A stretch of 64,000 bases of DNA from assembly GCA_964614535.1 (NCBI GenBank), contig CAZTOZ010000023.1, forward strand, positions 81,552-145,551, written 5' to 3'. The notes beneath the pieces were generated by a model, which did no database searches, was not told the origin of the DNA, and was given only the letters and a program-made list of their open reading frames with translations. Shown here piece by piece: positions 14,692 through 59,022 of the stretch (position 1 is its first letter; each line of letters opens with the position of its first letter). This DNA is from an uncultured Thiotrichales bacterium. GTDB taxonomy: Bacteria > Pseudomonadota > Gammaproteobacteria > UWMA-0217. The translations under genes and the position numbers were made by a program.

Positions 14692-16173
14692 TCAGTAGGC
14701 CGTCTCGCCGGTGAACCCTTTGATGATGGTCATCAGAATGATCTTGATGTCGAGGAATATCGACCACTTGCGAATGTAGTCGATGTCGTAGATGACACGG
14801 CGCTGCATCTTGTCGAGGGAGTCGGTCTCGCCCCGCAGGCCGTTGACCTGGGCCCAGCCGGTGATCCCCGGCTTGATCTTGTGCCGCAGCATGTAGCCCC
14901 CGATGATGTTGCGGTAGGCCTCGTTGTGGGCCACCGCGTGCGGACGCGGGCCGACGATCGACATCGTCCCCATCAACACATTGATGAACTGGGGCAGTTC
15001 GTCCAGCGAGGTCCGGCGCAGATAGGCGCCGAAACGCGTCACCCGGGGATCGTCCTTCGTCACCTGACGGAAGTCGGTGCCATCCTCCAGCACCCGCATG
15101 GTGCGGAACTTCCACACCTTGATCGGCTTGCCGTCGAGCCCGTAGCGGGTCTGCTTGAAGATGATGGGGCCCTTGGAGGTGGCCTTGATGCCGATGGCGA
15201 TCAGAATCATCGGCACGGCGATGACGGTGAGGATCGCCAGCGAGAAGACGATGTCCTCGGTGCGCTTGACGACCCCTCGCAGGCCTGAGACCGGGTTTTC
15301 ATAGACGCTCACCGCCGGCACGCCATTGATGTCGACGATATGGGTGAAGTGGGTCTCCATCGAGTAGAAGTCGGGCACCACGTAGACCGCGACCATGGTG
15401 TTGGAGAGCATCCGGGTGATTTCCAGGATCTTGTGTTCCGCCCGCATCGGCATGGTGATGAAAACGACGTCGAACTCGCCTTTCTCTGCCGCTTTGACCA
15501 TGTCCTCGAAGGTGCCGTCCACCGGCAGCCCCTGTTTCAGGCGGCCCACGGCCTCCTGCTTGCGCCGGTTGATGATACGGCCGACGTGGTGGTAATCGAG
15601 GTGGGAGCGGTTGTCGTAGACGCCGACCAGCTCGTAGCCCACCCACGGGTTGTCCTCGATCTGGCTCTTGACGTGACGGCCGATCGGCCCGGCACCGGCG
15701 ATGGCGATGCGGCGGGTATTGATGCCGTGGGCCCGCAGAAAGCGCACCGACGCATTGAGCACGATCCGCACCAGCATGAACCCCAGGATCGAGATCACGA
15801 ACCAGGCCCCGGCCAGCACCCAGTCCAGGTGTTCGATACTCTGGTCGAAGATCAGGGCGATGATCAGCAGCGTCAGGCCGGTGAACATCCAGGCGAGGGT
15901 CGCCAATGCCACCATCCAGAAGCGGGACAGAAAGGTGTTGGTGATCTTCCAGTTCTGATAGACGTGGAAGAACTCGGCGTAGAACTGCATCAGCAGAATG
16001 GCCAGCAACGCGTAGAAGGCGTGGACGCGGATCCAGCCTTCCTCCGCGGTGCCGGTGATATTGACGGCGATGAACAGCGAGATGCCGATGGCGAGCGAGT
16101 CGAGCACCCGTGCCAGCAGCGACAGCGGATGTTGTGATGCCACGATCGGTGTTCTTGAGGAGAGCGTCTGCAT
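14692..16173 (-). CDS. undecaprenyl-phosphate sugar phosphotransferase (WbaP/WcaJ-type initiating glycosyltransferase)
   Basis: N-terminal TM helices, a CoA-binding-like middle domain, and the C-terminal bacterial sugar-transferase domain ([36 protein letters not shown]). Confidence 0.9.
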   Translation of the reverse strand: [493 protein letters not shown]

Positions 16174-16508
16174 GGTTGTTGGCGATCAGGGTTCCCGAGT
16201 CAGGCTCGTTGGTTGCTATTTTTGTTGTTGTTGTTCAGCCGGATGTTCCGATCCTTGGTCGACACGAACCATGTTGCGCTGGCAACGCACCGAGGCGTCT
16301 CACTCGCCAGAACCTGCCTGGTCGGTGTGCGGCATCTCCCTGTACCGTCTGCTCCTTGCGCGGCCGAATCGTTCGGGCCGGTCAGCGCTGCATTAGAGCA
16401 GAGCCCTACAAGCCGAGTATATAGGCTTGATCACAAAACCGGTCGGCCGCAGCCCCCAACCCACGGCGAAACCGCGTGGGGTGTGACGGGGTGAGGATTC
16501 CGGGTGGT

Positions 16509-16598
16509 GCCACGGGCGGCCAGCCCGGATATTGCACGAGAATACAGGATGTTGGGAGAATCTCGGCGAGACCGTTTGTTTGATTCGCCGAAAAGCAT
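16509..16598 (-). repeat. copy 1 of a ~90-nt conserved non-coding element (second copy at 42769-42860)
   Basis: About 80% identity over ~90 nt to the iscX-ndk intergenic region when read on the minus strand. Its translations differ in a non-synonymous-dominated way, so it is not protein-coding. Confidence 0.5.
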
Positions 16599-16634
16599 AG
16601 CGGTTTTTCCCAACGATCTTGTGAAAGATCCGGG

Positions 16635-17306
16635 CTAGGCGGAGGAGGGGTCGCCGAGAATGTCTTCCACTGGCTTGATGATGCCATGGCGCATCGCCAG
16701 TCGCACCAGCTCGGTGCTGTTGTGGACCTGCAGCTTGGCCTTGATCTGGGTGCTGTAGTTGGCGACTGTCTTGTAGCTGAGCGCCAGCTCCTTGGCCGCC
16801 TCGTGGGGCGACATCCCCTGTGCCAGCAGGCAGAAGATCTCGAACTCACGCGTCGTCAGACAGGCGAAGACGTCCTCGTCGCCGCGGGACTTGCGCAACG
16901 CCAGATTCTGCGCCAGCGCCTTGTCCAGGTAGGACTTGCCGGCGGCCACGGCGCGGACGCCATCGAGCATGACCTCGGGTGCGCAGTTCTTGGTGATATA
17001 GCCGAGCGCGCCGGCTTGCATCGCCTTCTCCACGAAGGCGATGTCGTCGTGCATGCTGAAGACCAGGATCGCGGCCGACTTGTCGCGTGCAATGATGCGG
17101 CGGATCGCCTCCATGCCGCCGATGCCCGGCAACGACAGATCCATGACGACGACGGTCGGATGCAGCTTGGCGAAATACTCGCAGGCCTGTTCGCCGCTTT
17201 CGGCCTCGGCCACCACCTCGATGTCGGGGGCGGTGTCGAGCAGGGAACGATACCCGGCGCGCACCACCGCATGATCGTCTACCAGCAGTACCTTGAGCTG
17301 TTTCAT
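16635..17306 (-). CDS. NarL/FixJ-family response regulator
   Basis: Receiver domain (KVLLVDDH...VVVMDLSLPG) plus LuxR HTH (LTTREFEIFCLLAQGMSPHEAAKELALSYKTVANY). Confidence 0.9.
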   Translation of the reverse strand: MKQLKVLLVDDHAVVRAGYRSLLDTAPDIEVVAEAESGEQACEYFAKLHPTVVVMDLSLPGIGGMEAIRRIIARDKSAAILVFSMHDDIAFVEKAMQAGALGYITKNCAPEVMLDGVRAVAAGKSYLDKALAQNLALRKSRGDEDVFACLTTREFEIFCLLAQGMSPHEAAKELALSYKTVANYSTQIKAKLQVHNSTELVRLAMRHGIIKPVEDILGDPSSA

Positions 17307-17321
17307 CGTCGCTCCTCTCGT

Positions 17322-18647
17322 TCAGGTTTCAGGAGATGCCGGAATGACGAGGTCGATCTTTACACCCCGTCCGGGCCGGCCTACAAGGGAGAGGCTCCCG
17401 TTACATGAGTCGGCGCGATTCTGCATCCCGGACAACCCCATTCCCAGCGGCCGGGTCTTCGGGTCGAATCCCTGGCCGTCGTCCTCGATGTGCAGGCTGA
17501 TGCGGCCATCGTCGCTGCGCTGCAGCAGGATGGTGACGTTCGATGCCCGGGCATGCTTGGCGATATTGGTCAGCGCCTCCTGCACGATACGATAGATGTG
17601 GATGCTCACGTCGTCGTCCAGATCCTCGAAACGGCCGTTGATCGACAGTGCCGTGAAGGTGTTCTCGTGGATACTGTTCCAGCCGTCGACCAGACGCTCG
17701 ATGGCGGTGACCAGCCCCAGCTCGTCGAGCACCACCGGCCGCAGGCGGTTCATCATGCCGCGCACCACCGAATACATGTGGTTGCAGATATCGGTGATGG
17801 CACCGGCCGCCGCACCATTCTCCGGACAGGCCCGGGTCAGCGACGCCGCCTGTGCCTTGATGGCGGTGATCGACTGCCCCAGCTCGTCGTGCAACTCCTG
17901 TGCCATGTGGCGCTGGTTCGCCTCCAGCATCTGCAGCATGCGGCGGCTCAGTGCCTTGTTCTCGGTCTTCTGCCGGTCCAGTACCGAGGCCATGTGGTTG
18001 AACTTCTGCGACAACTGGTTCAGCTCCGGCAGATCGAACGCCGGCAGCCGCGCCTTGTAGTCGCCGGCCTGGATGATGTCGAGGCCGGAGGAGATCTCGT
18101 TCACCGGGCGCAGCGCACGGCGCACGATCAGCCAGGTGAGGACGATGCTGATGGCCGTGAAGGTGCCGATCAGCAGCAGGATGGTGCGGGTGTCGCGCCA
18201 GACCCGGCCGATCTCGTGGCGCGGGTCGGGGGTGATGGTGATCTCCACCGGCGTGCCGCCGGCGCCGTCGAACTGACGGTGGTACGCCCTCAGCCCCGGT
18301 GTCACCATCTTCATGAACCACCACGGCGCGCTGCCCTGGTGGTGAGGATTGCTGATGGTGACCATCCGTGGTGCGGCGTAACCGACCTGGTTGATCGTCA
18401 GATTGAGGTCGCGGATGCTCTCGATCCGGCCGAGCTGCTCGACCAGCACGTCCATCGGGGTGCGCCCGCCGCTGGCCTGACTGCTGAGGAAGACGGCGGA
18501 CAACAGCTGCATCGTCACCTCGGCGTCGTTGTCCAGCTCGTTGGCGACGCTCACGCGGGCGTTCTTGATGACCAGCAGCGCGCCGGCCATCAGCATCGTG
18601 GCGACCACGGCCAGAATCAACAGCGTGATGCGGGTGGCGAGACTCAT
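17322..18647 (-). CDS. sensor histidine kinase (NarX-like, HisKA_3 family)
   Basis: Two TM helices flank a periplasmic domain. HAMP domain, H-box HDELGQSITAIK, and HATPase region (IVQEALTNIAKHA...DDGQGF). Confidence 0.85.
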   Translation of the reverse strand: MSLATRITLLILAVVATMLMAGALLVIKNARVSVANELDNDAEVTMQLLSAVFLSSQASGGRTPMDVLVEQLGRIESIRDLNLTINQVGYAAPRMVTISNPHHQGSAPWWFMKMVTPGLRAYHRQFDGAGGTPVEITITPDPRHEIGRVWRDTRTILLLIGTFTAISIVLTWLIVRRALRPVNEISSGLDIIQAGDYKARLPAFDLPELNQLSQKFNHMASVLDRQKTENKALSRRMLQMLEANQRHMAQELHDELGQSITAIKAQAASLTRACPENGAAAGAITDICNHMYSVVRGMMNRLRPVVLDELGLVTAIERLVDGWNSIHENTFTALSINGRFEDLDDDVSIHIYRIVQEALTNIAKHARASNVTILLQRSDDGRISLHIEDDGQGFDPKTRPLGMGLSGMQNRADSCNGSLSLVGRPGRGVKIDLVIPASPET

Positions 18648-20124: not shown

Positions 20125-20547
20125 GTGAGCATACGCCCGCCGACGCTGAAACTGCGCCCGTCGCGGGCGATGGGCGTGTGGCGCATCGCCACCCATCTGC
20201 TGGCGGCGGCCGCCATCGCGCTGGCGAGGCTGCCAACACCGCTGGCCGCCATGCTGCTGCTGGTCGTCGCCGCCAGTCTGTGGCTCGGGTTGCGGCGTGA
20301 GCAGCGGCGCGGACGCTGGGTATTGACGCCGTTGACCGCGGACGACTGGCATCTGCGTTACCACGACCGGGAGGAGCGCGGCAGGGTGTGCGGGGGACGG
20401 GTCTTCCGCCACCTGGTGACGCTCCGTTTCCGCGTCGAGGGAAGGCGGTGGCCGCGCACCATCGCCATTGCCGCCGACGCCGTTCCGGCCGACGTCCATC
20501 GCCGTCTGCGTGCCTGGCTCAACCTGCGGGAGGGGGATCGCCAATGA
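20125..20547 (+). CDS. ygfX: YgfX/CptA-like inner-membrane protein
   Basis: Two TM helices followed by a basic Arg/Trp-rich tail. The N-terminal pattern LRPSRAMGVWRIATHLL parallels E. coli YgfX LRVSWRAQWLSLLIHGL. The start is uncertain: GTG at 20125 or ATG at 20170. Confidence 0.5.
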   Translation: MSIRPPTLKLRPSRAMGVWRIATHLLAAAAIALARLPTPLAAMLLLVVAASLWLGLRREQRRGRWVLTPLTADDWHLRYHDREERGRVCGGRVFRHLVTLRFRVEGRRWPRTIAIAADAVPADVHRRLRAWLNLREGDRQ

Positions 20548-21998
20548 AACGCTGGATCGACCATCTGCTCGAGACCGATCCCGAACAACGGCTGACGAGC
20601 TGGCTGTTCCTGCGCCTGCTCGCCATCGTCTACTTCGTCGCCTTCGCCTCGCTGTCGGTGCAGATCGTCGGGCTGGTCGGGCCGGACGGCATCCTGCCCT
20701 TCACCGAAGCGGCCAGGGTGGGCTACGAACGCTTCGGTCACGACGCCTGGTGGATGTTCCCGACGCTGTTCTGGATCGACGCCAGCGATGCCGCGCTGCA
20801 TGGCGCCACCTTCGCCGGGATGCTGCTGTCGCTGTCGCTGCTGTTCGGCTTCTATCCGCGCTTCTGCCTGACGCTGATGTTCGTGCTCTACCTGTCACTG
20901 CTGACGGCGGGGCAGACGTTTCTCACTTTCCAGTGGGACATCCTGCTGCTCGAGACGGGGTTCTTCGCCATCTTTCTCGCCGCCAACCCGAGCCGGCTGG
21001 TGATCTTCTTCTTCCACTGGCTGCTGTTCCGGCTGCGTTTCCTCTCCGGCCTGTCGAAAATCCTCAGCGGGGATCCGGTCTGGGCCAATCTGACGACACT
21101 CGACTACTACTTCGAGACCCAGCCGCTGCCCCATATCGGCTCCTGGTATGCGCACCATCTGCCAGAGGCGGTGCACCGTTTCGGTACCGGCTTCACGCTG
21201 TTCGCCGAGTTGATCGTGCCGTTCTTCATCTTCATGCCGCGGCCGTTCCGTATCGTCGCGGCGATCGTCACCACGCTGCTGCAGCTGGTCATCATCGCCA
21301 CCAGCAACCACAACTGGATCAACATCCTGACCATCGTGCTCTGCCTCTTTCTGCTCGACGACCGCATCGTCGGCCGACTGATGCCGAAGAACCTCGTGCG
21401 TTCGATTCTTGCCGCGACGCCACGCGTCGACCGGCGCTGGGGCGGCGCCCTGCTGCTGGGTGGGCTGCTGGTCTTCTCCACCAGCCTGCTGTCGATCCAT
21501 GCCCGCGTCATCGGCCAGATACCGCCGCCGTCGGTTGCTTTCGTCGCCGACGTGGTGCGTCACTACGGACTCGGCCATGTCTATCACGTCTTCCCGACGA
21601 TGCAGACCGAACGCCAGGAGCTGGAGATCGTCGGCTCCAACGACGGCAAGCGATGGCTGGCATACCGCTTTCGTTACAAGCCGGGGCCGCTCGATCGGCC
21701 ACCCCGGTTCAACGTGCCGCACCAGCCACGGCTCGACTGGCAGATGTGGTTTCTGCCACCGCAGTTCCCCGATCAGCTGGAGTGGTTCGACCGCTTCATG
21801 GGCAAAATCGCCGCCGGCGAGAAAAAGGTGCTGGCGCTGCTCGATGAAAACCCCTTCCCGGACCGGCCGCCAAGATATCTGCGTGTCCGCGTCTGGCGCT
21901 ACCACTTCACCACGCCGGAAGAACGGCGCCGCACCGGACAGTGGTGGAAGCGGGAGTTCCTCGGCTACTTTCCCCATACGCCGCCACGCCGGCCGTAG
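20544..21998 (+). CDS. lipase maturation factor (LMF1-like, DUF1222) family membrane protein
   Basis: Polytopic membrane protein with LMF family-wide similarity (LSGLSKILSGDPVWANLTTLDYYFETQPLP). Its ATG overlaps the ygfX stop in an ATGA arrangement. Confidence 0.8.
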   Translation: MKRWIDHLLETDPEQRLTSWLFLRLLAIVYFVAFASLSVQIVGLVGPDGILPFTEAARVGYERFGHDAWWMFPTLFWIDASDAALHGATFAGMLLSLSLLFGFYPRFCLTLMFVLYLSLLTAGQTFLTFQWDILLLETGFFAIFLAANPSRLVIFFFHWLLFRLRFLSGLSKILSGDPVWANLTTLDYYFETQPLPHIGSWYAHHLPEAVHRFGTGFTLFAELIVPFFIFMPRPFRIVAAIVTTLLQLVIIATSNHNWINILTIVLCLFLLDDRIVGRLMPKNLVRSILAATPRVDRRWGGALLLGGLLVFSTSLLSIHARVIGQIPPPSVAFVADVVRHYGLGHVYHVFPTMQTERQELEIVGSNDGKRWLAYRFRYKPGPLDRPPRFNVPHQPRLDWQMWFLPPQFPDQLEWFDRFMGKIAAGEKKVLALLDENPFPDRPPRYLRVRVWRYHFTTPEERRRTGQWWKREFLGYFPHTPPRRP

Positions 21999-22043: not shown

Positions 22044-22916
22044 ATGGGCGAGCAACGGCGAGACAGCAATCTCCTTGATGATCCGCTCTGGGTCGAACAG
22101 GTGGGTGATGGACCGGTGGTGGCCACCGCGATCCATGCCGGGCACGAAGTGCGGCGTGATCTGTTGCCACTGCTGGCGATCGACGAATCGACCCGGGCGC
22201 GGGAGGAAGATCCCTATACCGACGCGCTGGTCAAGGTGGTGCCGTCCTGGATTGCGTTCAAACGTTCCCGCTTCGAGGTGGATCTCAACCGGCCGAAGAA
22301 CGAAGCGGTCTATCTCTCGCCGGAGATGGCCTGGGGGTTGCACGTCTGGAAAAAACCGCTCGATGAAACCGAGATCGAACGCTCGCTGGAGGAGTACGAC
22401 GCCTTCTATGACGAACTCTATCGACTGCTGAAGAAGATCGAACGGCGGTATGGCTGTTTCGTCGTCTTCGACCTGCACAGCTACAACCATCGCCGCCGGG
22501 GACCACATGCGCCACCGGAGGATCCCGCTGGCAATCCCGATGTCAATGTGGGCACCGGTTCACTGGATCACAAGCGTTGTGGTGCGGTGGTAAGGCGGTT
22601 CATCGAGGATCTGCGCAACTACGATTTTCTCGGTCACCATCTCGATGTGCGGGAGAACGTCAAGTTCAAGGGGCGTCAGCTGGCCGAATGGATCCACCGG
22701 AAATTCCCCGATACGGCCTGTGTCCTGGCCATCGAATTCAAGAAATTCTTCATGGACGAGTGGACCGGTGTGGCCGACATCGATCAGGTGGTGGAGATTC
22801 GCAAGGCGCTGCAGGCAACGCTGCCCGGCATCGTCGAGACCCTGCACCGGATCCCGCAGTGCCAGAAAAAACGGCATGAGACGCCCCCCGGGAGCAGCGG
22901 CGATGCAGCGCGTTGA
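22044..22916 (+). CDS. N-formylglutamate amidohydrolase (FGase) family protein
   Basis: FGase-family similarity (VATAIHAGHEVR...DLHSY). The first gene of a conserved triad. Confidence 0.8.
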   Translation: MGEQRRDSNLLDDPLWVEQVGDGPVVATAIHAGHEVRRDLLPLLAIDESTRAREEDPYTDALVKVVPSWIAFKRSRFEVDLNRPKNEAVYLSPEMAWGLHVWKKPLDETEIERSLEEYDAFYDELYRLLKKIERRYGCFVVFDLHSYNHRRRGPHAPPEDPAGNPDVNVGTGSLDHKRCGAVVRRFIEDLRNYDFLGHHLDVRENVKFKGRQLAEWIHRKFPDTACVLAIEFKKFFMDEWTGVADIDQVVEIRKALQATLPGIVETLHRIPQCQKKRHETPPGSSGDAAR

Positions 22917-24744
22917 TGCACTGGCCGACCGGGTCATCGAAACGCTCGACAATGGCGAGCCGGTGGATCTTGCCTTGCCCGGTGGTGGCCGGCTGCACAT
23001 CGACCGTCCCCTGCCTTTTCTCTGCATCCACCGTAATGAAGAGGGTGCCGCCGACGACGTCACGGCCGCGCTGGTGGCTACCCAGTCGGCCTGGATGGTG
23101 GTGCCGGCGCCAGCAGCGCCCGAGGCATTGCTGAGTGCGCTGGCGGACTACCAACAGGCGCGGTTTGGCGCCTGCCTGTTGCTGGAGCTGTGGGCTGCCC
23201 CGCACGATGACGAGCAGTTGCCCGATCACGCCTTTTGCATCGTTGCGCCACAACGGCATCCGCCCCGGGAGGTGATCGACGAGCTGGAGAGTGCCCTCGT
23301 CAAGGTGACGATTCATCGCCGTACCCCCCGTATCGAGGTGGCCTACCGGCAGCGAGTGTCGCCCCCGGGATTGCCGCCATTGCCGGCAGGCGGGCCATGT
23401 CGGCGGCTCGGACTGGAGGTGAGTCCAGTCTATCGGGATCCCGAAAGCGGCGAGGTCTTCACCTTTGCGATGCGCGTTTTCCGGCAACGGCTCAATACGG
23501 CGCTCAAGCGCGCTTTCTACCGTTTTTCTCAGTGCTGCACACGGCATCGGCCCGCCCATTTCCATGCCCTCGGGCCGCGCTCGATCACGCCGGCGGTCAA
23601 GGCGGTCGATGCCCGGCTTGCCGAGATCAGCGAACGATTCGATCTGTTGCTGCACGTCACCCCGGTCAATGTGGCGCAGGCCTGGGCGGCATTCCAGGCG
23701 AGCCGCTTCGAGCAGGCCCCTGAATTTCTCTACCGCCCACGCACCATCGATCCCGACAGGATGAAACGGGCCCTCTACCAGATCGAGATGGAGAGCATCG
23801 AGGATCCCACGCTGGCCGATATCTTCCGTGCCAAGCGTGATGAACTGGATCGTCAGATCACGCTGGTGGCAGACCGCAATACTCCCCGCTTTCTGCTCGG
23901 CAGCCGGCAACTGTTCCCCGACCCCTCGACGGGGTTGATCGAACAGGCGCGACGGATTCTCGAGATGCCGCCCGCCAGCGAGCCGGAAGGGGGGGACGAG
24001 CGGCTCGACGCCAACGCTTTCGCCGCCCTGGCCGAAGCCGAGATGGCCCGGTACCGGGCTCGCGATCCCGACTTCGCCAGCCGGGTGGAGGTACGCGACG
24101 ATATCGCCGGTATCATGGTCTCCCACGGTAATTTTCTGATCGGTGCCCAGGCGACGGTGGCCCGCGCCAGGGTCGATGCCGCACTCGCCCACGAAATCGG
24201 GACCCATGTGCTGACCTGGCACAACGGCGGCAAGCAGCCGCTGCGGGAGTTGCGTAGCGGCATGGCCGACTATGAGGGGCTGCAGGAAGGGCTGGCGGTG
24301 TTGTCGGAGTTTCTCGTCGGTCAGCTCGATCGTGGCAGGATGCGGCAACTGGCAGCCCGGGTGCTCGCGGTGCAGATGATCTGTGCGGGCGCCAGCTTCA
24401 TCGATGCCTTTCGCCAGCTGCATCGGGGCTGGCAGTTTACGGCCAGGGATGCCTTCATGATCACCATGCGGGTCTGGCGGGGCGGGGGATATACCAAGGA
24501 TGTGATCTATCTGCGCGGGCTGGCGGATTTGCTCGACCATCTCGGCCGTGGGGGGGCGCTCGAGAACCTCTGGCTCGGCAAACTGGCGCAGCAGCGCCTG
24601 TCGCTGATCGATGAGCTGCGCTGGCGCGGGATCCTCCGGCCGCCGGCGCTGATACCCGCTTTCCTCGACGATCCGCGAACCGCCTCGCGTATCCGGCGTC
24701 TCGCAAAAGGGCTGTTGGTCAGTGATTTGTTGCCTGCGCAATGA
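22903..24744 (+). CDS. flavohemoglobin-expression-modulating QEGLA-motif protein (DUF1704, putative Tyr/Phe-carboxypeptidase-like)
   Basis: Contains the diagnostic EGLQEGLA motif and HEIGTHV (HExxH-like). Starts at an ATG with a GGAG ribosome-binding site 8 nt upstream, overlapping the FGase-gene end by 14 nt in another frame. Confidence 0.85.
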   Translation: MQRVDALADRVIETLDNGEPVDLALPGGGRLHIDRPLPFLCIHRNEEGAADDVTAALVATQSAWMVVPAPAAPEALLSALADYQQARFGACLLLELWAAPHDDEQLPDHAFCIVAPQRHPPREVIDELESALVKVTIHRRTPRIEVAYRQRVSPPGLPPLPAGGPCRRLGLEVSPVYRDPESGEVFTFAMRVFRQRLNTALKRAFYRFSQCCTRHRPAHFHALGPRSITPAVKAVDARLAEISERFDLLLHVTPVNVAQAWAAFQASRFEQAPEFLYRPRTIDPDRMKRALYQIEMESIEDPTLADIFRAKRDELDRQITLVADRNTPRFLLGSRQLFPDPSTGLIEQARRILEMPPASEPEGGDERLDANAFAALAEAEMARYRARDPDFASRVEVRDDIAGIMVSHGNFLIGAQATVARARVDAALAHEIGTHVLTWHNGGKQPLRELRSGMADYEGLQEGLAVLSEFLVGQLDRGRMRQLAARVLAVQMICAGASFIDAFRQLHRGWQFTARDAFMITMRVWRGGGYTKDVIYLRGLADLLDHLGRGGALENLWLGKLAQQRLSLIDELRWRGILRPPALIPAFLDDPRTASRIRRLAKGLLVSDLLPAQ

Positions 24745-28577: not shown

Positions 28578-28673
28578 ATGGAAACCAGGAAGAGTTCCGT
28601 TGTGAAAGTGAACATGGACAGGGTATTGGGCCTGTTGCTGCTGCTGGCGGCGTTGCTGATGCTGCGGTACTGA
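28578..28673 (+). CDS. putative 31-aa hydrophobic small protein (METRKSSVVKVNMDRVLGLLLLLAALLMLRY)
   Basis: GAGGTG ribosome-binding site 6 nt upstream of the ATG. A single predicted TM helix. An intrinsic terminator follows ~60 nt downstream. Confidence 0.3.
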   Translation: METRKSSVVKVNMDRVLGLLLLLAALLMLRY

Positions 28674-28736: not shown

Positions 28737-28766
28737 AAGCCCGCCCCGGTGGCGGGCTTTTTCTTT
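28737..28766 (+). terminator. rho-independent terminator (GCCCGCCccggtGGCGGGC + TTTTTCTTT)
   Basis: Stem-loop plus T-tract, read directly from sequence. Confidence 0.6.
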
Positions 28767-29119
28767 GCATCGCGCCGACCGCCGCCGATCCCGTCGCGCG
28801 GGAATGGTCCTCGGCGGATCGTGCTGTCCCGGTGAGGCCGTCGTTTCACCGGATCGCTGAAAACAAGACCCAATACATTGATTTGCCGTGCGCATGGTGA
28901 GAGGTTGGCAGGGCGCATGGCGTCCCCGACACCGCCATGCGGTCTCCAAGAAATCTCAGCGGTCATTTTGTTCGATTCACCCGCGACCCTGGCGACGCCC
29001 ATGCGTTGCGGCGGGACGGGCGAATCGACGCACCGCGCTGTTGTCGACCGATTGCGGTCACATGGGGCATTACGGGTCGGGCCATGCCGATAACCCGCTG
29101 AATCAACGGGCGTTCTCCG

Positions 29120-30091
29120 ATGAAGGAAAAACTCAGAGTCCGCACGGCCATCGTGCTGCGCACCACCACGGGCGTCTCCCTGGAGGCCGCGCGGCTGGCG
29201 CTGTTCAATGCCCTGCTGGCGCGTCGCTACGACCAGCCGCTGGTGCTGCGGATCGACAATCCGATGGACGACGATGGCGCCGGCACCGAGGCCATGCTGG
29301 ACGATCTGCGCTGGCTGGGGGTGGAGTGGACGGCGGGCCCCGATGTCGGTGGTGAACACGCCCCCTATCTCCGCTCACACCGCAGCAGCATCTACGCCGC
29401 TTTCTACGTCAAACTGATCGAGATGGGGCGCGCCTACCCCTGTTTCTGCACCGAGCGGGAACTGGAGGCCATGCGCCGTGCCCAGATCGCGTCCGGCATT
29501 ACGCCGCACTACGCCGGTGGCTGCAACCGGCTGAACCGGCAGGGGCGCCAGCACCGCATCGACAAGGGCCTGCCCGCCGTGCTGCGGTTCGCCATCCGCC
29601 GGGACTGGCGTTGCCACTACGACGACCTGCTGCTGGGACAGTACCACTGCGGCCCCGACGAGGTGGGGGATTTCGTGATCCGTGGACGCAACGGGGATGC
29701 GCAGCGGGTATTCACTACCACGGTGGACGATGCGCTGTTTGGTGTCACCCACCGCTTCCGTGGCATCGACGAACGCCAGCAGGTGCCGCAACAACTGGCG
29801 CTGGCCGATGCGCTGGGTTTGCCGTTGCCACTCTACGGACATCTGCCGCGGCTGCTGCCGGCGGCGTCGGAACAAGACGGCCTGCCCACGCTGACCTCGC
29901 TGCGCCGGGCGGGCTACCGACCGGAGGCGGTGCTGAACCATCTGGCCCGGCTCGGACACCGTTACGACAGCGAGCTGGTGCTGGACTTCGACGAGCTGGC
30001 CCGCCAGTTCCGCCTCTCCCGCCTCTGCGAGGAGCCGGTGTTCCACCGCCGTGAACGGCTCGACGCCTGGCAGGCGGCGGTCACCGCCTGA
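29120..30091 (+). CDS. glutamyl-tRNA synthetase catalytic-domain paralog (GluQRS-like) with degenerate HIGH and KMSKS motifs
   Basis: Aligns to the GluRS N-terminus (VLRIDNPMDD vs VLRIEDTDLE; CxC zinc knuckle YPCFCTERELEAM; THRFRGIDE vs THVIRGEDH). The HIGH motif is SLEA, and the KMSKS position reads LTSLRR. No anticodon-binding domain is present. Confidence 0.75.
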   Translation: MKEKLRVRTAIVLRTTTGVSLEAARLALFNALLARRYDQPLVLRIDNPMDDDGAGTEAMLDDLRWLGVEWTAGPDVGGEHAPYLRSHRSSIYAAFYVKLIEMGRAYPCFCTERELEAMRRAQIASGITPHYAGGCNRLNRQGRQHRIDKGLPAVLRFAIRRDWRCHYDDLLLGQYHCGPDEVGDFVIRGRNGDAQRVFTTTVDDALFGVTHRFRGIDERQQVPQQLALADALGLPLPLYGHLPRLLPAASEQDGLPTLTSLRRAGYRPEAVLNHLARLGHRYDSELVLDFDELARQFRLSRLCEEPVFHRRERLDAWQAAVTA

Positions 30092-40163: not shown

Positions 40164-42038
40164 ATGGCACTACTGCAGATCTCCGAACCTGGCATGTCCA
40201 CCGCGCCCCATCAGCGCAAGCTGGCGGCGGGCATCGACCTCGGCACCACCAATTCGCTGGTGGCCTCGGTCCGCAGCGGCGTGGCCGAGACGCTGCCCGA
40301 TGAACAGGGACGGCACCTGCTGCCGTCGGTGGTCCACTACCGCGAAGACGGGCCGCCGCTGGTGGGCTACGAGGCGCTGCAACGGGCCAGTGACGATCCG
40401 CTGAACACCATTGCGTCGGTCAAACGACTGATGGGGCGTGGCGTCGAGGATCTGAAGCGACTCGGCGGCCAGCTCTCCTACCGCATCGCCGAAGGCGAGG
40501 GCCATGTTCCACGCATCGTCACCGCCGCCGGGGAGAAGACGGCGGTCGAGGTCTCGGCCGACATACTCAAGGCGCTGAGGGATCGCGCCGAGGCCACGCT
40601 GGGAGGCGAGCTGGAGGGGGTGGTCATCACCGTCCCCGCCTATTTCGACGATGCCCAGCGGCAGGCAACCAAGGATGCGGCCAGGCTGGCGGGGCTCGAG
40701 GTGCTGCGGCTGCTCAATGAGCCCACCGCAGCGGCGGTCGCCTATGGGCTGGAGAGCGGCGACGAAGGGGTGATCGCGGTCTACGACCTCGGTGGTGGCA
40801 CGTTCGATATATCGATCCTCCGGCTCCACAAGGGGGTTTTCGAGGTGCTGGCCACCGGAGGCGACTCGGCGCTCGGTGGCGACGACCTCGATCACGCCAT
40901 CGCCGAATGGCTGCTGCAATCCCTCGGCATCGAATCGTCCGACGATCACCGCCTGATGCGGCAGCTGATGACGGCGGCCCGCCAGGCAAAGGAGGCTCTT
41001 ACCACCGGCGAGGCGACCACCATCGAGATCACGCTGCCCGACGGCACAACCTGGCGGACCGAGCTGACGCGCGCGCGCTTCGACGAGCTGGTGCGACCAC
41101 TGGTCCGCAAGACCACCAGCGCCTGCCGCCGCGTGCTGCGCGACGCCGGCATCGACAAGGCGGCAGTGCGCGAGGTGGTGATGGTCGGCGGTTCGACGCG
41201 GGTACCCCTGGTGCGGCAGATGGTGGGCGAGTTCTTCGGTCGTGAACCGCTGGTGAGCATCGACCCCGACAAAGTGGTCGCCGTCGGCGCCGCGATTCAA
41301 GCGGACGTGCTGGTCGGCAACAAACCCGATGGTGACCTGTTGCTGCTCGATGTCATCCCGCTGTCGCTCGGGATCGAGACGATGGGCGGGCTGGTGGAGA
41401 AGATCATCCCCCGCAACACCACCATTCCGGTGGCCCGCGCCCAGGAGTTCACCACCTACAAGGATGGTCAGACGGCGATGGCGATCCACGTCGTCCAGGG
41501 CGAGCGGGAACTGGTCGCCGACAATCGCTCGCTGGCCCGTTTCGAGCTGCGCGGGATCCCGCCGATGGTCGCCGGCGCGGCCCGGATCCGCGTCACCTTC
41601 CAGGTGGATGCCGACGGCCTGCTCAATGTCTCCGCGCGCGAGGAGACCAGCGGCGTCGAGGCGTCGATCACGATCAAGCCCTCCTACGGCCTGTCGGACG
41701 AGGAGATCGAAACGATGCTGCGCGATTCGATGGAGCACGCCGCCGAAGACATGGCCGCCCGGATGCTGCGGGAGCAGCAGGTGGAGGCCGACCGGGTCAT
41801 CGAGGCGCTCGACGCGGCGCTGGCCAAGGATGGCGACGAACTGCTGACGGCACAGGAGAAGGCCGCAATCCTCGACGCCCGTCAGCAGCTCATCGAGGCT
41901 CGCCAGGGCAGCGACACCGCCGCGATCAAGGCGGCCATCAAAACCGTCGAGAAACGCGCCGAAACCTACGTGGAGCGACGCATGAACAGCAATATCCGCC
42001 AGGCGATGGCGGGTCACAACGTCGAGGAATTCGAGTAA
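40164..42038 (+). CDS. hscA: chaperone HscA (Hsc66)
   Basis: Hsp70 ATPase motifs ([17 protein letters not shown]). Confidence 0.95.
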
Positions 42039-42400: not shown

Positions 42401-42601
42401 ATGGGGCTGAAATGGACCGATACGCTCGATATCGCCATCGCGCTGGACGAGGCGCATCCGGACGTCGATCCGCTGACGGTCAACTTCGTCGATCTGCGCA
42501 ACTGGATCCTCGGACTCGACGACTTCGATGACGACCCGGAACACTCCGGCGAACGCATCCTCGAGGCGGTGCAGATGGCCTGGATCGACGAGCGGAGCTA
42601 A
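42401..42601 (+). CDS. iscX: Fe-S assembly protein IscX (YfhJ)
   Basis: 66 aa, acidic. MGLKWTDTLDIAIAL...FVDLRNWI matches the IscX family. Confidence 0.9.
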   Translation: MGLKWTDTLDIAIALDEAHPDVDPLTVNFVDLRNWILGLDDFDDDPEHSGERILEAVQMAWIDERS

Positions 42602-42768
42602 ACCGAATATTTCACGAAAACGGAGAAATCCGCGTAACACGCTGATTCATATTGCTTTTCCGGAGTATCGGTAAAGCGCGAGGTGGCACCAGCATCGCCA
42701 TGCGGTGATTGGAAGAACCTCAAGTGGCCCCTTCTTGTCCGATCCACCTGTAACGCATGGCGACGGCC

Positions 42769-42860
42769 ATGCTTTGCGGCGAATCGAACCAATGGCCTCG
42801 CCGAGATCCTCTCAATATCCTGCATTCTCATGAAACCATCGGGCCAACGCCCGTTTGCCT
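42769..42860 (+). repeat. copy 2 of the ~90-nt conserved non-coding element (pairs with 16509-16598)
   Basis: ATGCTTTGCGGCGAATCGAACCAATGGCCTCGCCGAGATCCTCTCAATATCCTGCATTCTCATG... It is followed by a sigma70-like promoter TTGCCT-N17-TAGAAT ~100 nt before ndk. Confidence 0.5.
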
Positions 42861-42967
42861 GTACCGCTCGCGGCCAGTAGAATCCGCTCACTTTCGAATA
42901 TCCTCGCAAACCCGCGGCCAAGGCGGGTTTGTGTTATTTTGTCCACCTGAAAATACTGGAGTTTTTC

Positions 42968-43399
42968 ATGGCGATCGAACGCACCATTTCCATCATCAAG
43001 CCCGACGCAGTAGCCAAGAACGTCATCGGCGACATCTACCGCCGTTTCGAGGAGGCCGGTCTCCGCATCGTCGCCGCCAAGATGAAGCATCTGAGCCGCC
43101 GCGAGGCGGAGGGCTTCTACGCCGTTCACAAGGAGCGTCCGTTCTTCAACGACCTGGTCGAGTTCATGACCTCCGGGCCGGTGATGATCCAGGTGCTCGA
43201 AGGCGAGAACGCCATTGCCAGAAACCGCGAGCTGATGGGGGCCACCAACCCGGCCGAGGCCGCGCCGGGCACGATTCGCGCCGATCACGCCTCCACCATC
43301 GACGAGAACGCCGTCCACGGTTCCGACGCGCCGGAGACGGCAGCCACCGAGATCGCCTATTTCTTTTCCGAGATAGAGATCTGCCCCCGCACGCGCTGA
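42968..43399 (+). CDS. ndk: nucleoside diphosphate kinase
   Basis: NDK motifs ([17 protein letters not shown]). GGAG ribosome-binding site 7 nt upstream. Confidence 0.95.
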
Positions 43400-58188: not shown

Positions 58189-59022
58189 TTACTTGCCTTC
58201 GGCCTTTGCAGCCGGCTTCGGCGCTTCGGCAGCCGCTTTCTTGGACTGGGCTTCGAACGCCTGGCGCTGGGCCTGCATCTGCTTCTGGAACTCGGCGAAG
58301 GCCTTCTGCTGGGCTTCCATGGCAGCCTTACGCTGGGCCTGCATCTGCTGCATCATCGCGCTGTTGTCGGGACGCGCGGGACGCTGAGGCATCTGCATGG
58401 CAGGACGCTGGGGCGGTGCCATCATCGGCGCGGGGGCGGCAGCCTGCCCCGCTGCGGCAGGTGCGGCTGCGGGCGCAGCAGCAGGTGCGACCGGAGCCGG
58501 TGCCCAGCCGTAGCCACGGCCGTAGTACGGACGACCGTAGTAGTTGTCGCCGGACCAGTTCTGGTAGCCGTCACCATAACCGTAGCCGCTGCCATAACCG
58601 TCGCCATAACCGCTGCCATAGCCGTCACCGTAACCGTAGCCGCTGCCATAGCCGTCGCCATAACCGCTGCCATAACCGTCACCGTAACCGCTGCCATAGC
58701 CATGACCACGACCCTTGCCACGGCCACGAGCCTTGCCGGAGATGCTCAGGTTGAAGGAACCATCGACATCACCATCGACATCGCCGTCGGTGTAACCGGA
58801 ACCATAGCCGCTGCCGCGGGAAGTGCCGTAACCGGAACCGTAGCCGCGGGTGTCGCCATAGCCGTAACCACGGGTATCGCCATAGCCATAGCCACGGGTA
58901 TCGCCGTAGCCGTAGCCGCGACCATCGCCCCAGCCGGAGCCATCATCGAACCAGTCGCCAGCGACGGCGGCGGAAGTGGAAACTGCGATTGCAGCTGCAA
59001 GTGCAAGCTTGGTGTATTTCAT
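58189..59022 (-). CDS. secreted Gly/Tyr-repeat low-complexity protein, sulfur-globule-protein-like (Sgp-like)
   Basis: Signal peptide MKYTKLALAAAIAVSTSAAVA. Tandem GYGDTR and GYGSGYGDGY repeats, then an Ala/Pro/Gln/Met-rich tail. GAGGA ribosome-binding site. A dedicated terminator follows. The ORF-finder TTG extension was not used. Confidence 0.7.
   Translation of the reverse strand: MKYTKLALAAAIAVSTSAAVAGDWFDDGSGWGDGRGYGYGDTRGYGYGDTRGYGYGDTRGYGSGYGTSRGSGYGSGYTDGDVDGDVDGSFNLSISGKARGRGKGRGHGYGSGYGDGYGSGYGDGYGSGYGYGDGYGSGYGDGYGSGYGYGDGYQNWSGDNYYGRPYYGRGYGWAPAPVAPAAAPAAAPAAAGQAAAPAPMMAPPQRPAMQMPQRPARPDNSAMMQQMQAQRKAAMEAQQKAFAEFQKQMQAQRQAFEAQSKKAAAEAPKPAAKAEGK
58556..58930. repeat. in-frame tandem nucleotide repeats (18-24-nt units) encoding the GYG repeats
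   Basis: Visible periodicity (ccgtagccgctgccataaccgtcgccataaccgctgccatagcc...). This is a coding repeat, not a CRISPR array. Confidence 0.6.

Follow-up and report, generated by a model that had tools for sequence, protein, structure and literature searches.

The Correia elements of Neisseria (CREE/NEMIS) are non-coding units of about 100-160 bp that are bounded by inverted repeats of about 25 bp and occur in long and short variants set apart by an internal segment. Their flanks are of the TA type; they insert beside genes, with which they are co-transcribed to give long hairpins. Integron attC sites, which measure 57-141 bp, are likewise imperfect palindromes; they are situated immediately 3' of ORFs and fold in a strand-specific manner. 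The repeat units of enterobacteria combine terminal inverted repeats and stable stem-loops with a terminal TA and duplication of a TA target, and they can be fused to ORFs at the 3' end (PMC2759123). ERIC/IRU (RU-1, 127 bp), RU-2 and RU-3 are imperfect palindromes in transcribed intergenic regions whose size variants stem from internal indels, and units of the ERIC/IRU type that are fused to the 3' end of an ORF supply its last codons together with the stop codon (PMC2759123). PMC3733652 describes the RAYT-mobilised REP, BIME and REPIN sequences as short, species-specific extragenic palindromes that are often located just past stop codons and for which roles in mRNA stabilisation and termination have been proposed; REPs are defined there by a length of 20-40 nt, GTAG or CGTC as the head and the presence of a RAYT gene.

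Here we describe a repeat in the genome of an uncultured gammaproteobacterium with a G+C content of 64%, one copy of which is inserted between iscX and ndk; 'the window' denotes throughout the whole stretch of DNA that was analysed, 64,000 nt in length. The repeat most probably belongs to a hitherto undescribed family of mobile elements that are small, non-coding and non-autonomous (MITE-like, in the style of Correia, ERIC and RUP). It resembles the Correia elements in being non-coding, in its inverted repeats of ~25 nt, its long and short variants, its TA-type flanks, its position next to genes and its expected co-transcription into a long hairpin, and differs from them in sequence, to which it bears no similarity, in its uncultured G+C-rich gammaproteobacterial host, in a long form of ~250 nt and in that no IHF site or internal promoter was identified. 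The likeness to ERIC and the RU elements extends to the fusion with ORF 3' ends, which recurs in one copy (L121, see below) and at the stop codons of iscX and of a response-regulator gene. However, there is again no sequence similarity, and while ERIC spans many enterobacterial genera, the new family was found in a single species-level lineage and is missing from the sister of that lineage. With REP, BIME and REPIN sequences the new elements have in common that they are species-specific palindromes outside genes, close behind stop codons. Membership of the REP/REPIN class was considered and rejected: the palindrome is 125-250 nt long, the terminal tetranucleotide is CTAG-like, no RAYT gene is seen in the window and no Y1 transposase occurs among the ORFs scanned. 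Like attC sites, the new elements are imperfect palindromes 3' of ORFs with strand-asymmetric folding, but they show no R''/R' core consensus, cassette array or nearby integrase and are dispersed among housekeeping operons.

The iscX-ndk spacer

The genes hscA, fdx, iscX, ndk and rlmN follow one another in the window, and iscX, which ends in a TAA codon (42599-42601), is separated from ndk by a spacer of 367 nt (42602-42968; 366 bp in the first-pass annotation). That annotation had singled out an element at 42769-42860 as the partner of a second one at 16509-16598. The partnership is borne out by a repeat search of the window, in which 42763-42844 (+) matches 16523-16604 (-) over 82 nt, the two arms being 79% complementary, making this the longest inverted pair in the window (the runner-up measures 56 nt at 71%), and by blastn, which aligns the two copies over 73 nt at 82.2% identity (E ~1e-15). 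Three pairs pass an E-value threshold of 1e-3 when the window is compared with itself by blastn. One is a tandem repeat in coding sequence near 58.6 kb, another is a match of 28 nt between the coding regions 22923-22950 and 41786-41813 (E 5e-4), and the third, formed by copies 1 and 2, is the sole dispersed non-coding repeat in the window at this threshold.

The extent of the element had to be redrawn. Homology to copy 1 covers 42763 to ~42848, and the last ~12 nt of the original interval (42849-42860) are not part of the element; in the alignment they are flanking DNA common to the sister lineage and contain a -35 hexamer. The 90-nt unit is moreover only a part of what was inserted, since the full insertion occupies 42602-42848 and copy 1 really occupies 16517-16641 (Table 1). 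The promoter-like sequence TTGCCT-N17-TAGAAT reported just downstream was recovered there by a consensus scan, with the right end of the element ~6 nt upstream of its -35 hexamer. The element is thus correctly placed 3' of iscX, in the sense orientation, and next to the ndk promoter-like site; the regulatory function that had been attached to this placement is unsupported.

Between this promoter-like site and ndk, and equally outside the element, lies a G+C-rich hairpin whose stem (CAAACCCGC/GCGGGTTTG) is kept, as judged by alignment, in the window, in the sister contig L113 and in the outgroups L132 and L134. Its loops vary (GGCCAAG, GATTCGT, CTTG and CCTG), and a T-rich run follows the stem. 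An Rfam match to rnk_pseudo, the Pseudomonas rnk leader, falls on this hairpin only and scores 22.7 bits against a gathering score of 55. The hairpin is probably either the terminator of the isc operon or an ndk leader or attenuator. Because the promoter-like site is upstream of it in both the window and the sister, the hairpin would be contained within the ndk 5' leader.

Table 1. Positions of the element copies, their parts and the neighbouring features (window coordinates unless another contig is named)
Feature	Position	Strand	Evidence
Copy 2, long form, whole lineage-specific insertion, ~247 nt	42602..42848	+	sister alignment; outgroup spacers
Copy 2, left end/left terminal inverted repeat (ACCGAATATTTCACGAAAACGG...)	42602..42637	+	homologous to left ends of copy 1, copy 3 and L121
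Internal module, ~125 nt, long forms only (copies 2 and 3)	42637..42761	+	nhmmer; local alignment
Copy 2, core and right terminal inverted repeat (element of the first-pass annotation)	42763..42848	+	identity to copy 1 and L121
Copy 1, short form, ~125 nt	16517..16641	-	inverted repeats; single-hairpin fold
Copy 3 (c3), decayed long form, ~255 nt	28838..29092	+	colinear with left end and internal module of copy 2
Copy 4 (L121), ~90 nt	L121 4822-4912, contig Ga0256914_1008547		metagenome pattern scan
iscX (upstream gene)	42401..42601	+	Pfam PF04384 on identical protein
ndk (downstream gene)	42969..43399	+	PF00334 NDK on same gene in L001; ORF list
Sigma-70-like promoter TTGCCT-N17-TAGAAT, outside element	42855..42883	+	consensus scan; both hexamers identical in sister
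G+C-rich hairpin and T-run upstream of ndk, outside element	42905..42940	+	terminator scan

Copies and their anatomy

Four copies are documented, three of them in the 64 kb of the window and the fourth on a contig (L121) from the same metagenome as a contig with an identical copy 2; L121 is of the same species as the window. A high copy number of the family is an extrapolation from these four. Their contexts are unrelated. Besides the copy between iscX and ndk, copy 1 has the stop codon of a gene for a NarL-family response regulator (16635-17306, -) on one side and a gene for a sugar transferase (14692-16173, -) on the other, c3 is located upstream of a truncated glutamyl-tRNA-synthetase-like gene (29120-30091), and L121 sits in the gap of ~70 nt that separates two convergent genes, one of the DUF3293 family and aroE.

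The copies are modular. The short form (~125 nt) consists of terminal inverted repeats enclosing a core with an inner CGGCGA/TCGCCG hairpin, and the long form (~250 nt) has in addition the internal module, which in copy 2 contains a 10-bp stem (42695-42704/42754-42763). The core of copy 2 is 82% identical to 16532-16604 (-) and 90% identical over 41 nt to L121 4856-4896, L121 having lost 26 nt of the core through an internal deletion. The relationship of c3 to the long form is supported by an nhmmer profile of the internal module ('Mid'), which matches 28874-28996 with an E-value of 2.5e-31, and by a local alignment with copy 2 that scores 54 compared to a maximum of 28 in 692 control windows.

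The terminal inverted repeats of the intact copies are 23-28 nt long and of the AGCCCGGATMTTTCAC type (consensus roughly AGCCCGGATMTTTCACRAGA..., ~25 nt), and the ends of the element read (C)TAGCCCGGAT...ATCCGGGCTAG. They match at 20 of 25 positions in copy 1 (16517-16541/16617-16641), a score that none of 500 shuffles reaches, and at 20 of 28 in L121 (reached by two of 500). In copy 2, where ACCGAATATTTCACGAAAAC pairs with ATTCTCATGAAACCATCGG, the 16 matches in 23 positions are of marginal significance, 13 of 500 shuffles reaching the score; no inverted repeats are detectable in c3. Left ends are mutually homologous across the copies and so are right ends, and the left-end profile weakly matches the right ends in reverse orientation. 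An origin of the left half of copy 2 as an inverted duplicate of its core was rejected (DNA score 18; shuffles mean 14.5, maximum 25).

All four copies are oriented as the gene upstream of them and either start 0-3 nt from its stop codon or overlap it; copies 1 and 2 accordingly share one orientation relative to their flanking genes. The left inverted repeat of copy 1 overlaps the TAG stop (16635-16637) of the response-regulator gene, and that of L121 holds the last three codons and the stop of the upstream ORF, while the aroE stop codon forms part of the CTAG at the right end of L121. The tetranucleotides that flank the copies on the left and right are CTAG/CTGG (copy 1), CTAA/CCAA (copy 2) and CGAG/CTAG (L121), the members of each pair differing by one base. 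TA- or CTAG-like flanks are thus seen at three of the six intact termini and the other three are one substitution away, a pattern that fits a decayed TA or YTAR duplication and equally well the palindromic outer bases of the inverted repeats.

Folded as a whole, copy 2 forms one long imperfect palindrome (sense strand -83.5 kcal/mol, z -2.2; antisense strand -109 kcal/mol, z -4.6) and copy 1 a single hairpin (sense -49.2 kcal/mol, z -5.2; antisense -55.4 kcal/mol, z -4.7); c3 shows no excess folding (z -1.1). The interval of ~100 nt in the first-pass annotation yields only weak and inconsistent structures when folded alone (z -0.5 to -1.9), and the structure became apparent only with the true ends in place. 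The antisense strand is the more stable one in each of the three intact copies, by 5-26 kcal/mol, and is richer in G.U pairs, with 17 versus 7 on the sense strand of 42602-42848, and 6 versus 2 and 6 versus 1 in 16517-16641 and L121 4822-4912, respectively. A simple DNA-transposon model leaves this antisense excess unexplained. It may have been inherited from one founder copy, or it may reflect strand-specific selection on an RNA or single-stranded-DNA hairpin. That the element has been selected to fold on one strand, and is not a plain cut-and-paste MITE, strikes us as a long shot. If it were so, the element could move or act in single-stranded form, as a DNA or RNA hairpin directed to CTAG/TAA sites near stop codons, by an HUH/Y1- or integrase-like route, or alternatively it could have been exapted as an antisense or 3'-end RNA structure.

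Filled and empty sites

Named relatives of the IscX protein are few and include Thiohalobacter and Sedimenticola. Contigs that encode an identical IscX come from near-identical strains and are uninformative for the comparison, which was made with a sister lineage whose IscX is 94% identical (three NCBI MAGs and one Logan contig, L112-L115) and with two outgroups (IscX 85%). The sister has the order hscB-hscA-fdx-iscX-ndk-rlmN, the same as the window, and the gene order is likewise kept in the two outgroups. Its iscX-ndk spacer measures 121 nt and those of the two outgroups 101 nt and ~79 nt, as against 367 nt in the window, and no trace of the element is found in any of the three. In the alignment the iscX stop codon of the sister is followed within 7 nt by the TTTGCCTGTACC...CCAGTAGAAT promoter and then by the same hairpin; the window has ~246 extra nt at 42602-42848, beyond which promoter and hairpin align again, so that the junction between filled and empty site is located to within ~3 nt.

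The short spacers of the sister and both outgroups indicate that a short spacer is ancestral and that the element as first described is the right-hand third of a lineage-specific insertion. It had been called conserved, which is true of its repetition inside the genome and untrue between lineages, the sister and the two outgroups being without it. Since the sister retains gene order, promoter hexamers and hairpin without the element, expression of ndk-rlmN should be independent of it; on the sequence comparison, the predicted ndk promoter predates the insertion and works without the element in the sister lineage.

The other two copies in the window are missing from the sister as well. The orthologue of the copy-1 response regulator is 88% identical and resides in the same kinase-regulator operon, and downstream of it come 258 nt of spacer, free of the element, and then a HIT-family gene. 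At the third site the glutamyl-tRNA-synthetase-like orthologue is 82% identical and is preceded by a spacer ~105 nt shorter than that of the window. The module profiles detect no family member in this region, which contains a different 170-nt insertion of its own; the alignment here is ambiguous. All three window copies are therefore polymorphic for presence and absence at orthologous sites, with an imprecise junction in the case of c3.

Two further observations arose from this comparison. Synteny with the sister breaks exactly at the 3' end of the copy-1 regulator gene, a cluster of sugar-transferase and polysaccharide genes following in the window and the HIT-family gene in the sister, so that copy 1 marks the boundary of a rearrangement or island. 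The insertion of ~170 nt that is confined to the sister (L137 9664-9830, also in L135 and L136) and absent from the orthologous place in the window consists of four consecutive A+T-rich, near-perfect hairpins (e.g. GGAACCTCTGATTTGATCAGAGGTTCC) after a 31-codon ORF. A stretch with 72% identity to it occurs at another locus of the sister (L129 5601-5678) as a partial match, and these sequences suggest a different repeat family in the sister lineage.

Searches for relatives and for function

Rfam matched no family anywhere in the window at gathering thresholds. Relaxed to E<=10 at the loci of copies 1 and 2, its only match in the vicinity was the rnk_pseudo model mentioned above, off the element, and CsrB, CsrC and RsmX/Y/Z were not matched. 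Promoter and terminator scans of these two loci found neither a conserved promoter nor a conserved terminator in the shared sequence. An intrinsic (Rho-independent) terminator was rejected, as the element has no terminator match at either locus and is not followed by a U-tract. So was a small protein: one frame is open in copies 1, 2 and L121, yet there is no codon periodicity. Aligned without gaps over 73 nt, copies 1 and 2 differ by 13 substitutions that are spread 5/4/4 by codon position in every frame, and nearly all of them would be non-synonymous in the shared open frame. The lack of periodicity and the mostly non-synonymous changes mark the element as non-coding.

The exact pattern CGGCGAATCN{8,14}CTCGCCGAGAT occurs at 108 loci in 185,579 species genomes, all of them chance matches confined to the pattern, suggesting either that the family is very narrow or that a representative genome of the species is absent or divergent. 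A metagenome scan with GCCGAGATNCTCNCAANATCCTG returned four matches, two real (copy 2 and L121) and two by chance, and the plasmid collection and viral contigs contain no match to the family. Three module profiles run with nhmmer revealed no additional member in the window and, in 171 kb of fetched loci, none outside the same-species contigs; the source genome was covered by the window plus ~2 kb at each end. A Pfam scan of the 27 distinct ORFs of the window detected no transposase, integrase or Y1 transposase domain, and neither a parent insertion sequence nor a transposase whose inverted repeats match turned up among these ORFs, the plasmids or the viral contigs.

A probable mobile repeat and its alternatives

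The MITE-like reading draws on several properties taken together: the copies are small (below ~500 bp; sizes in Table 1) and non-coding, have when intact terminal inverted repeats and TA/CTAG-like flanks and fold over their whole length into a hairpin, come in modular variants, are dispersed in multiple copies, and alternate with empty orthologous sites. The enterobacterial repeat units described in PMC2759123 display this set of properties too. The lack of a transposase domain among the window ORFs fits a non-autonomous element. The copies would have been inserted by a transposase supplied in trans at a TA/CTAG-like target. In a G+C-rich genome such sites would be found mostly at TAA and TAG stop codons, and a preference for a TA-containing target would explain the position of the copies, which start at the stop codon of the gene before them or overlap with it. 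Copy 2 would have gone in behind the iscX stop codon and ahead of an ndk promoter that was already there, and it is expected to be within the transcribed 3' UTR of the isc operon, where it would fold into a long hairpin. The element is thus probably carried along in the isc 3' UTR, with its end a short way ahead of the ndk promoter, and it is plausible that this is a passive outcome of where it inserted. Should it affect mRNA stability, read-through or the ndk promoter, this would be incidental to the insertion and not the reason for the sequence, and a regulatory role is possible in that capacity only.

The position of the copies directly behind stop codons is also what would be expected if the hairpin at the end of isc had been exapted as part of a 3' UTR, be it as an mRNA stabiliser, an RNase III or RNase E site or a partial terminator or insulator, perhaps releasing a 3'-UTR-derived RNA, which was one of the suggestions of the first-pass annotation. 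The shared orientation of four out of four copies, 0-3 nt from a stop codon or overlapping it, and the stability of the copy-1 sense RNA speak for such a role, and effects of this kind are reported for REP, ERIC and Correia elements (PMC2759123 and PMC3733652). The orientation, however, would arise by chance about once in 16 times, sense folds are worse than antisense folds in every intact copy, the U-tract is missing, and the conserved 42905-42940 hairpin with its T-run already resembles an isc terminator, while the sister and the outgroups manage without the element altogether; we therefore hold exaptation to be unlikely, though not far-fetched. The other earlier suggestion was an influence on ndk-rlmN. 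The element ends so close to the -35 hexamer that it replaces the DNA at about -40 to -60, where it could supply an activating or repressing site, protein-binding or UP-like, for TTGCCT-N17-TAGAAT. Yet the sister has the same hexamers with iscX coding sequence directly upstream, copy 1 is ~350 nt from the next start codon, L121 is situated between convergent genes and the copies have no downstream gene function in common, all of which makes a cis-regulatory module highly improbable.

Reading the antisense strand instead, one finds CAGGAU and GAGGAU/GGGAGA motifs, a better fold than on the sense strand and, beside copy 1, a NarL-family regulator whose homologues are labelled 'UvrY' by JGI, as might befit small RNAs that form a family and act in trans, such as decoys of the Csr/Rsm type with AGGA/GGA motifs. 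There are only about two GGA motifs per copy, though, and no Rfam family, CsrB/CsrC/RsmX/Y/Z included, matches even at E<=10. The copies have no promoter or terminator in common, and an antisense promoter for copy 2 would need to be inside the ndk promoter region that the sister also possesses. The regulator itself is in an operon with its own HAMP/HisKA_3 kinase (16635-18647, -), unlike GacA/UvrY, and its sister orthologue has no element beside it. We regard such decoys as scarcely credible, and the absence of a conserved promoter or terminator of its own, together with the location of L121 between convergent genes, weighs in general against the element being a dedicated sRNA gene or ndk regulator. 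There is, finally, a slender chance that the element is a substrate for single-strand recombination or transposition, resembling either the attC site of an integron or a palindrome-associated element of the IS200/IS605 type that an HUH/Y1 enzyme mobilises. Imperfect palindromes that follow stop codons directly and are oriented with the ORF recall attC sites, the G.U pairing is strand-asymmetric, and a CTAG-like tetranucleotide precedes the element. Against this, the ends are by inspection unlike the R''/R' core sites of attC (RYYYAAC...GTTRRRY), the copies form no cassette array but occur singly in the company of isc/ndk, two-component, bio/aro and tRNA-synthetase genes, the domain scan returned no integrase or Y1 transposase, and the asymmetry may go back to one founder copy; an integron attC site proper was rejected on the first two of these grounds.

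Other sequences in the window

Several other sequences in the window deserve mention. Upstream of the sugar-transferase gene, a TATATA box in the spacer is enclosed by a perfect inverted repeat of 6 bp, CAAGCC-N9-GGCTTG (16408-16428), which could be a regulator-binding site or promoter element. A degenerate tandem repeat with a 12-nt period (GTAGCC/GTAACC/GCTGCC units) occupies 58541-58924 within a coding region and probably specifies, on the minus strand, a protein of low complexity that is rich in Gly and Tyr. The neighbouring ORFs 20388-21998 and 22645-24744 match Pfam families that are mostly eukaryotic, namely the lipase maturation factor (LMF1, LMF1_C; E 1.6e-52) and the microtubule-associated tyrosine carboxypeptidase MATCAP (E 6e-87). 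A very short hydrophobic ORF at 28614-28673 (MDRVLGLLLLLAALLMLRY) is kept in the sister (L137 9564-9659) and may specify a leader peptide or small membrane protein. Behind it, and ahead of the truncated glutamyl-tRNA-synthetase-like gene, comes a strong terminator that looks bidirectional (28740-28770).

Significance

What had been read as a conserved regulatory RNA on the strength of two intergenic look-alikes is better understood as copies of a lineage-specific selfish repeat, and the element should not be annotated as an sRNA or as a riboregulator of ndk or isc. The repeats constitute a new MITE-like family in an uncultured, probably sulfur-oxidising gammaproteobacterium, for which the iscX-ndk locus provides a clean pair of filled and empty sites at near-base resolution. 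Repeats of this kind are useful as strain markers and can break metagenome assemblies. The family would also illustrate how, in G+C-rich genomes, elements that target TA accumulate at stop codons and can come to supply the last codons of genes.
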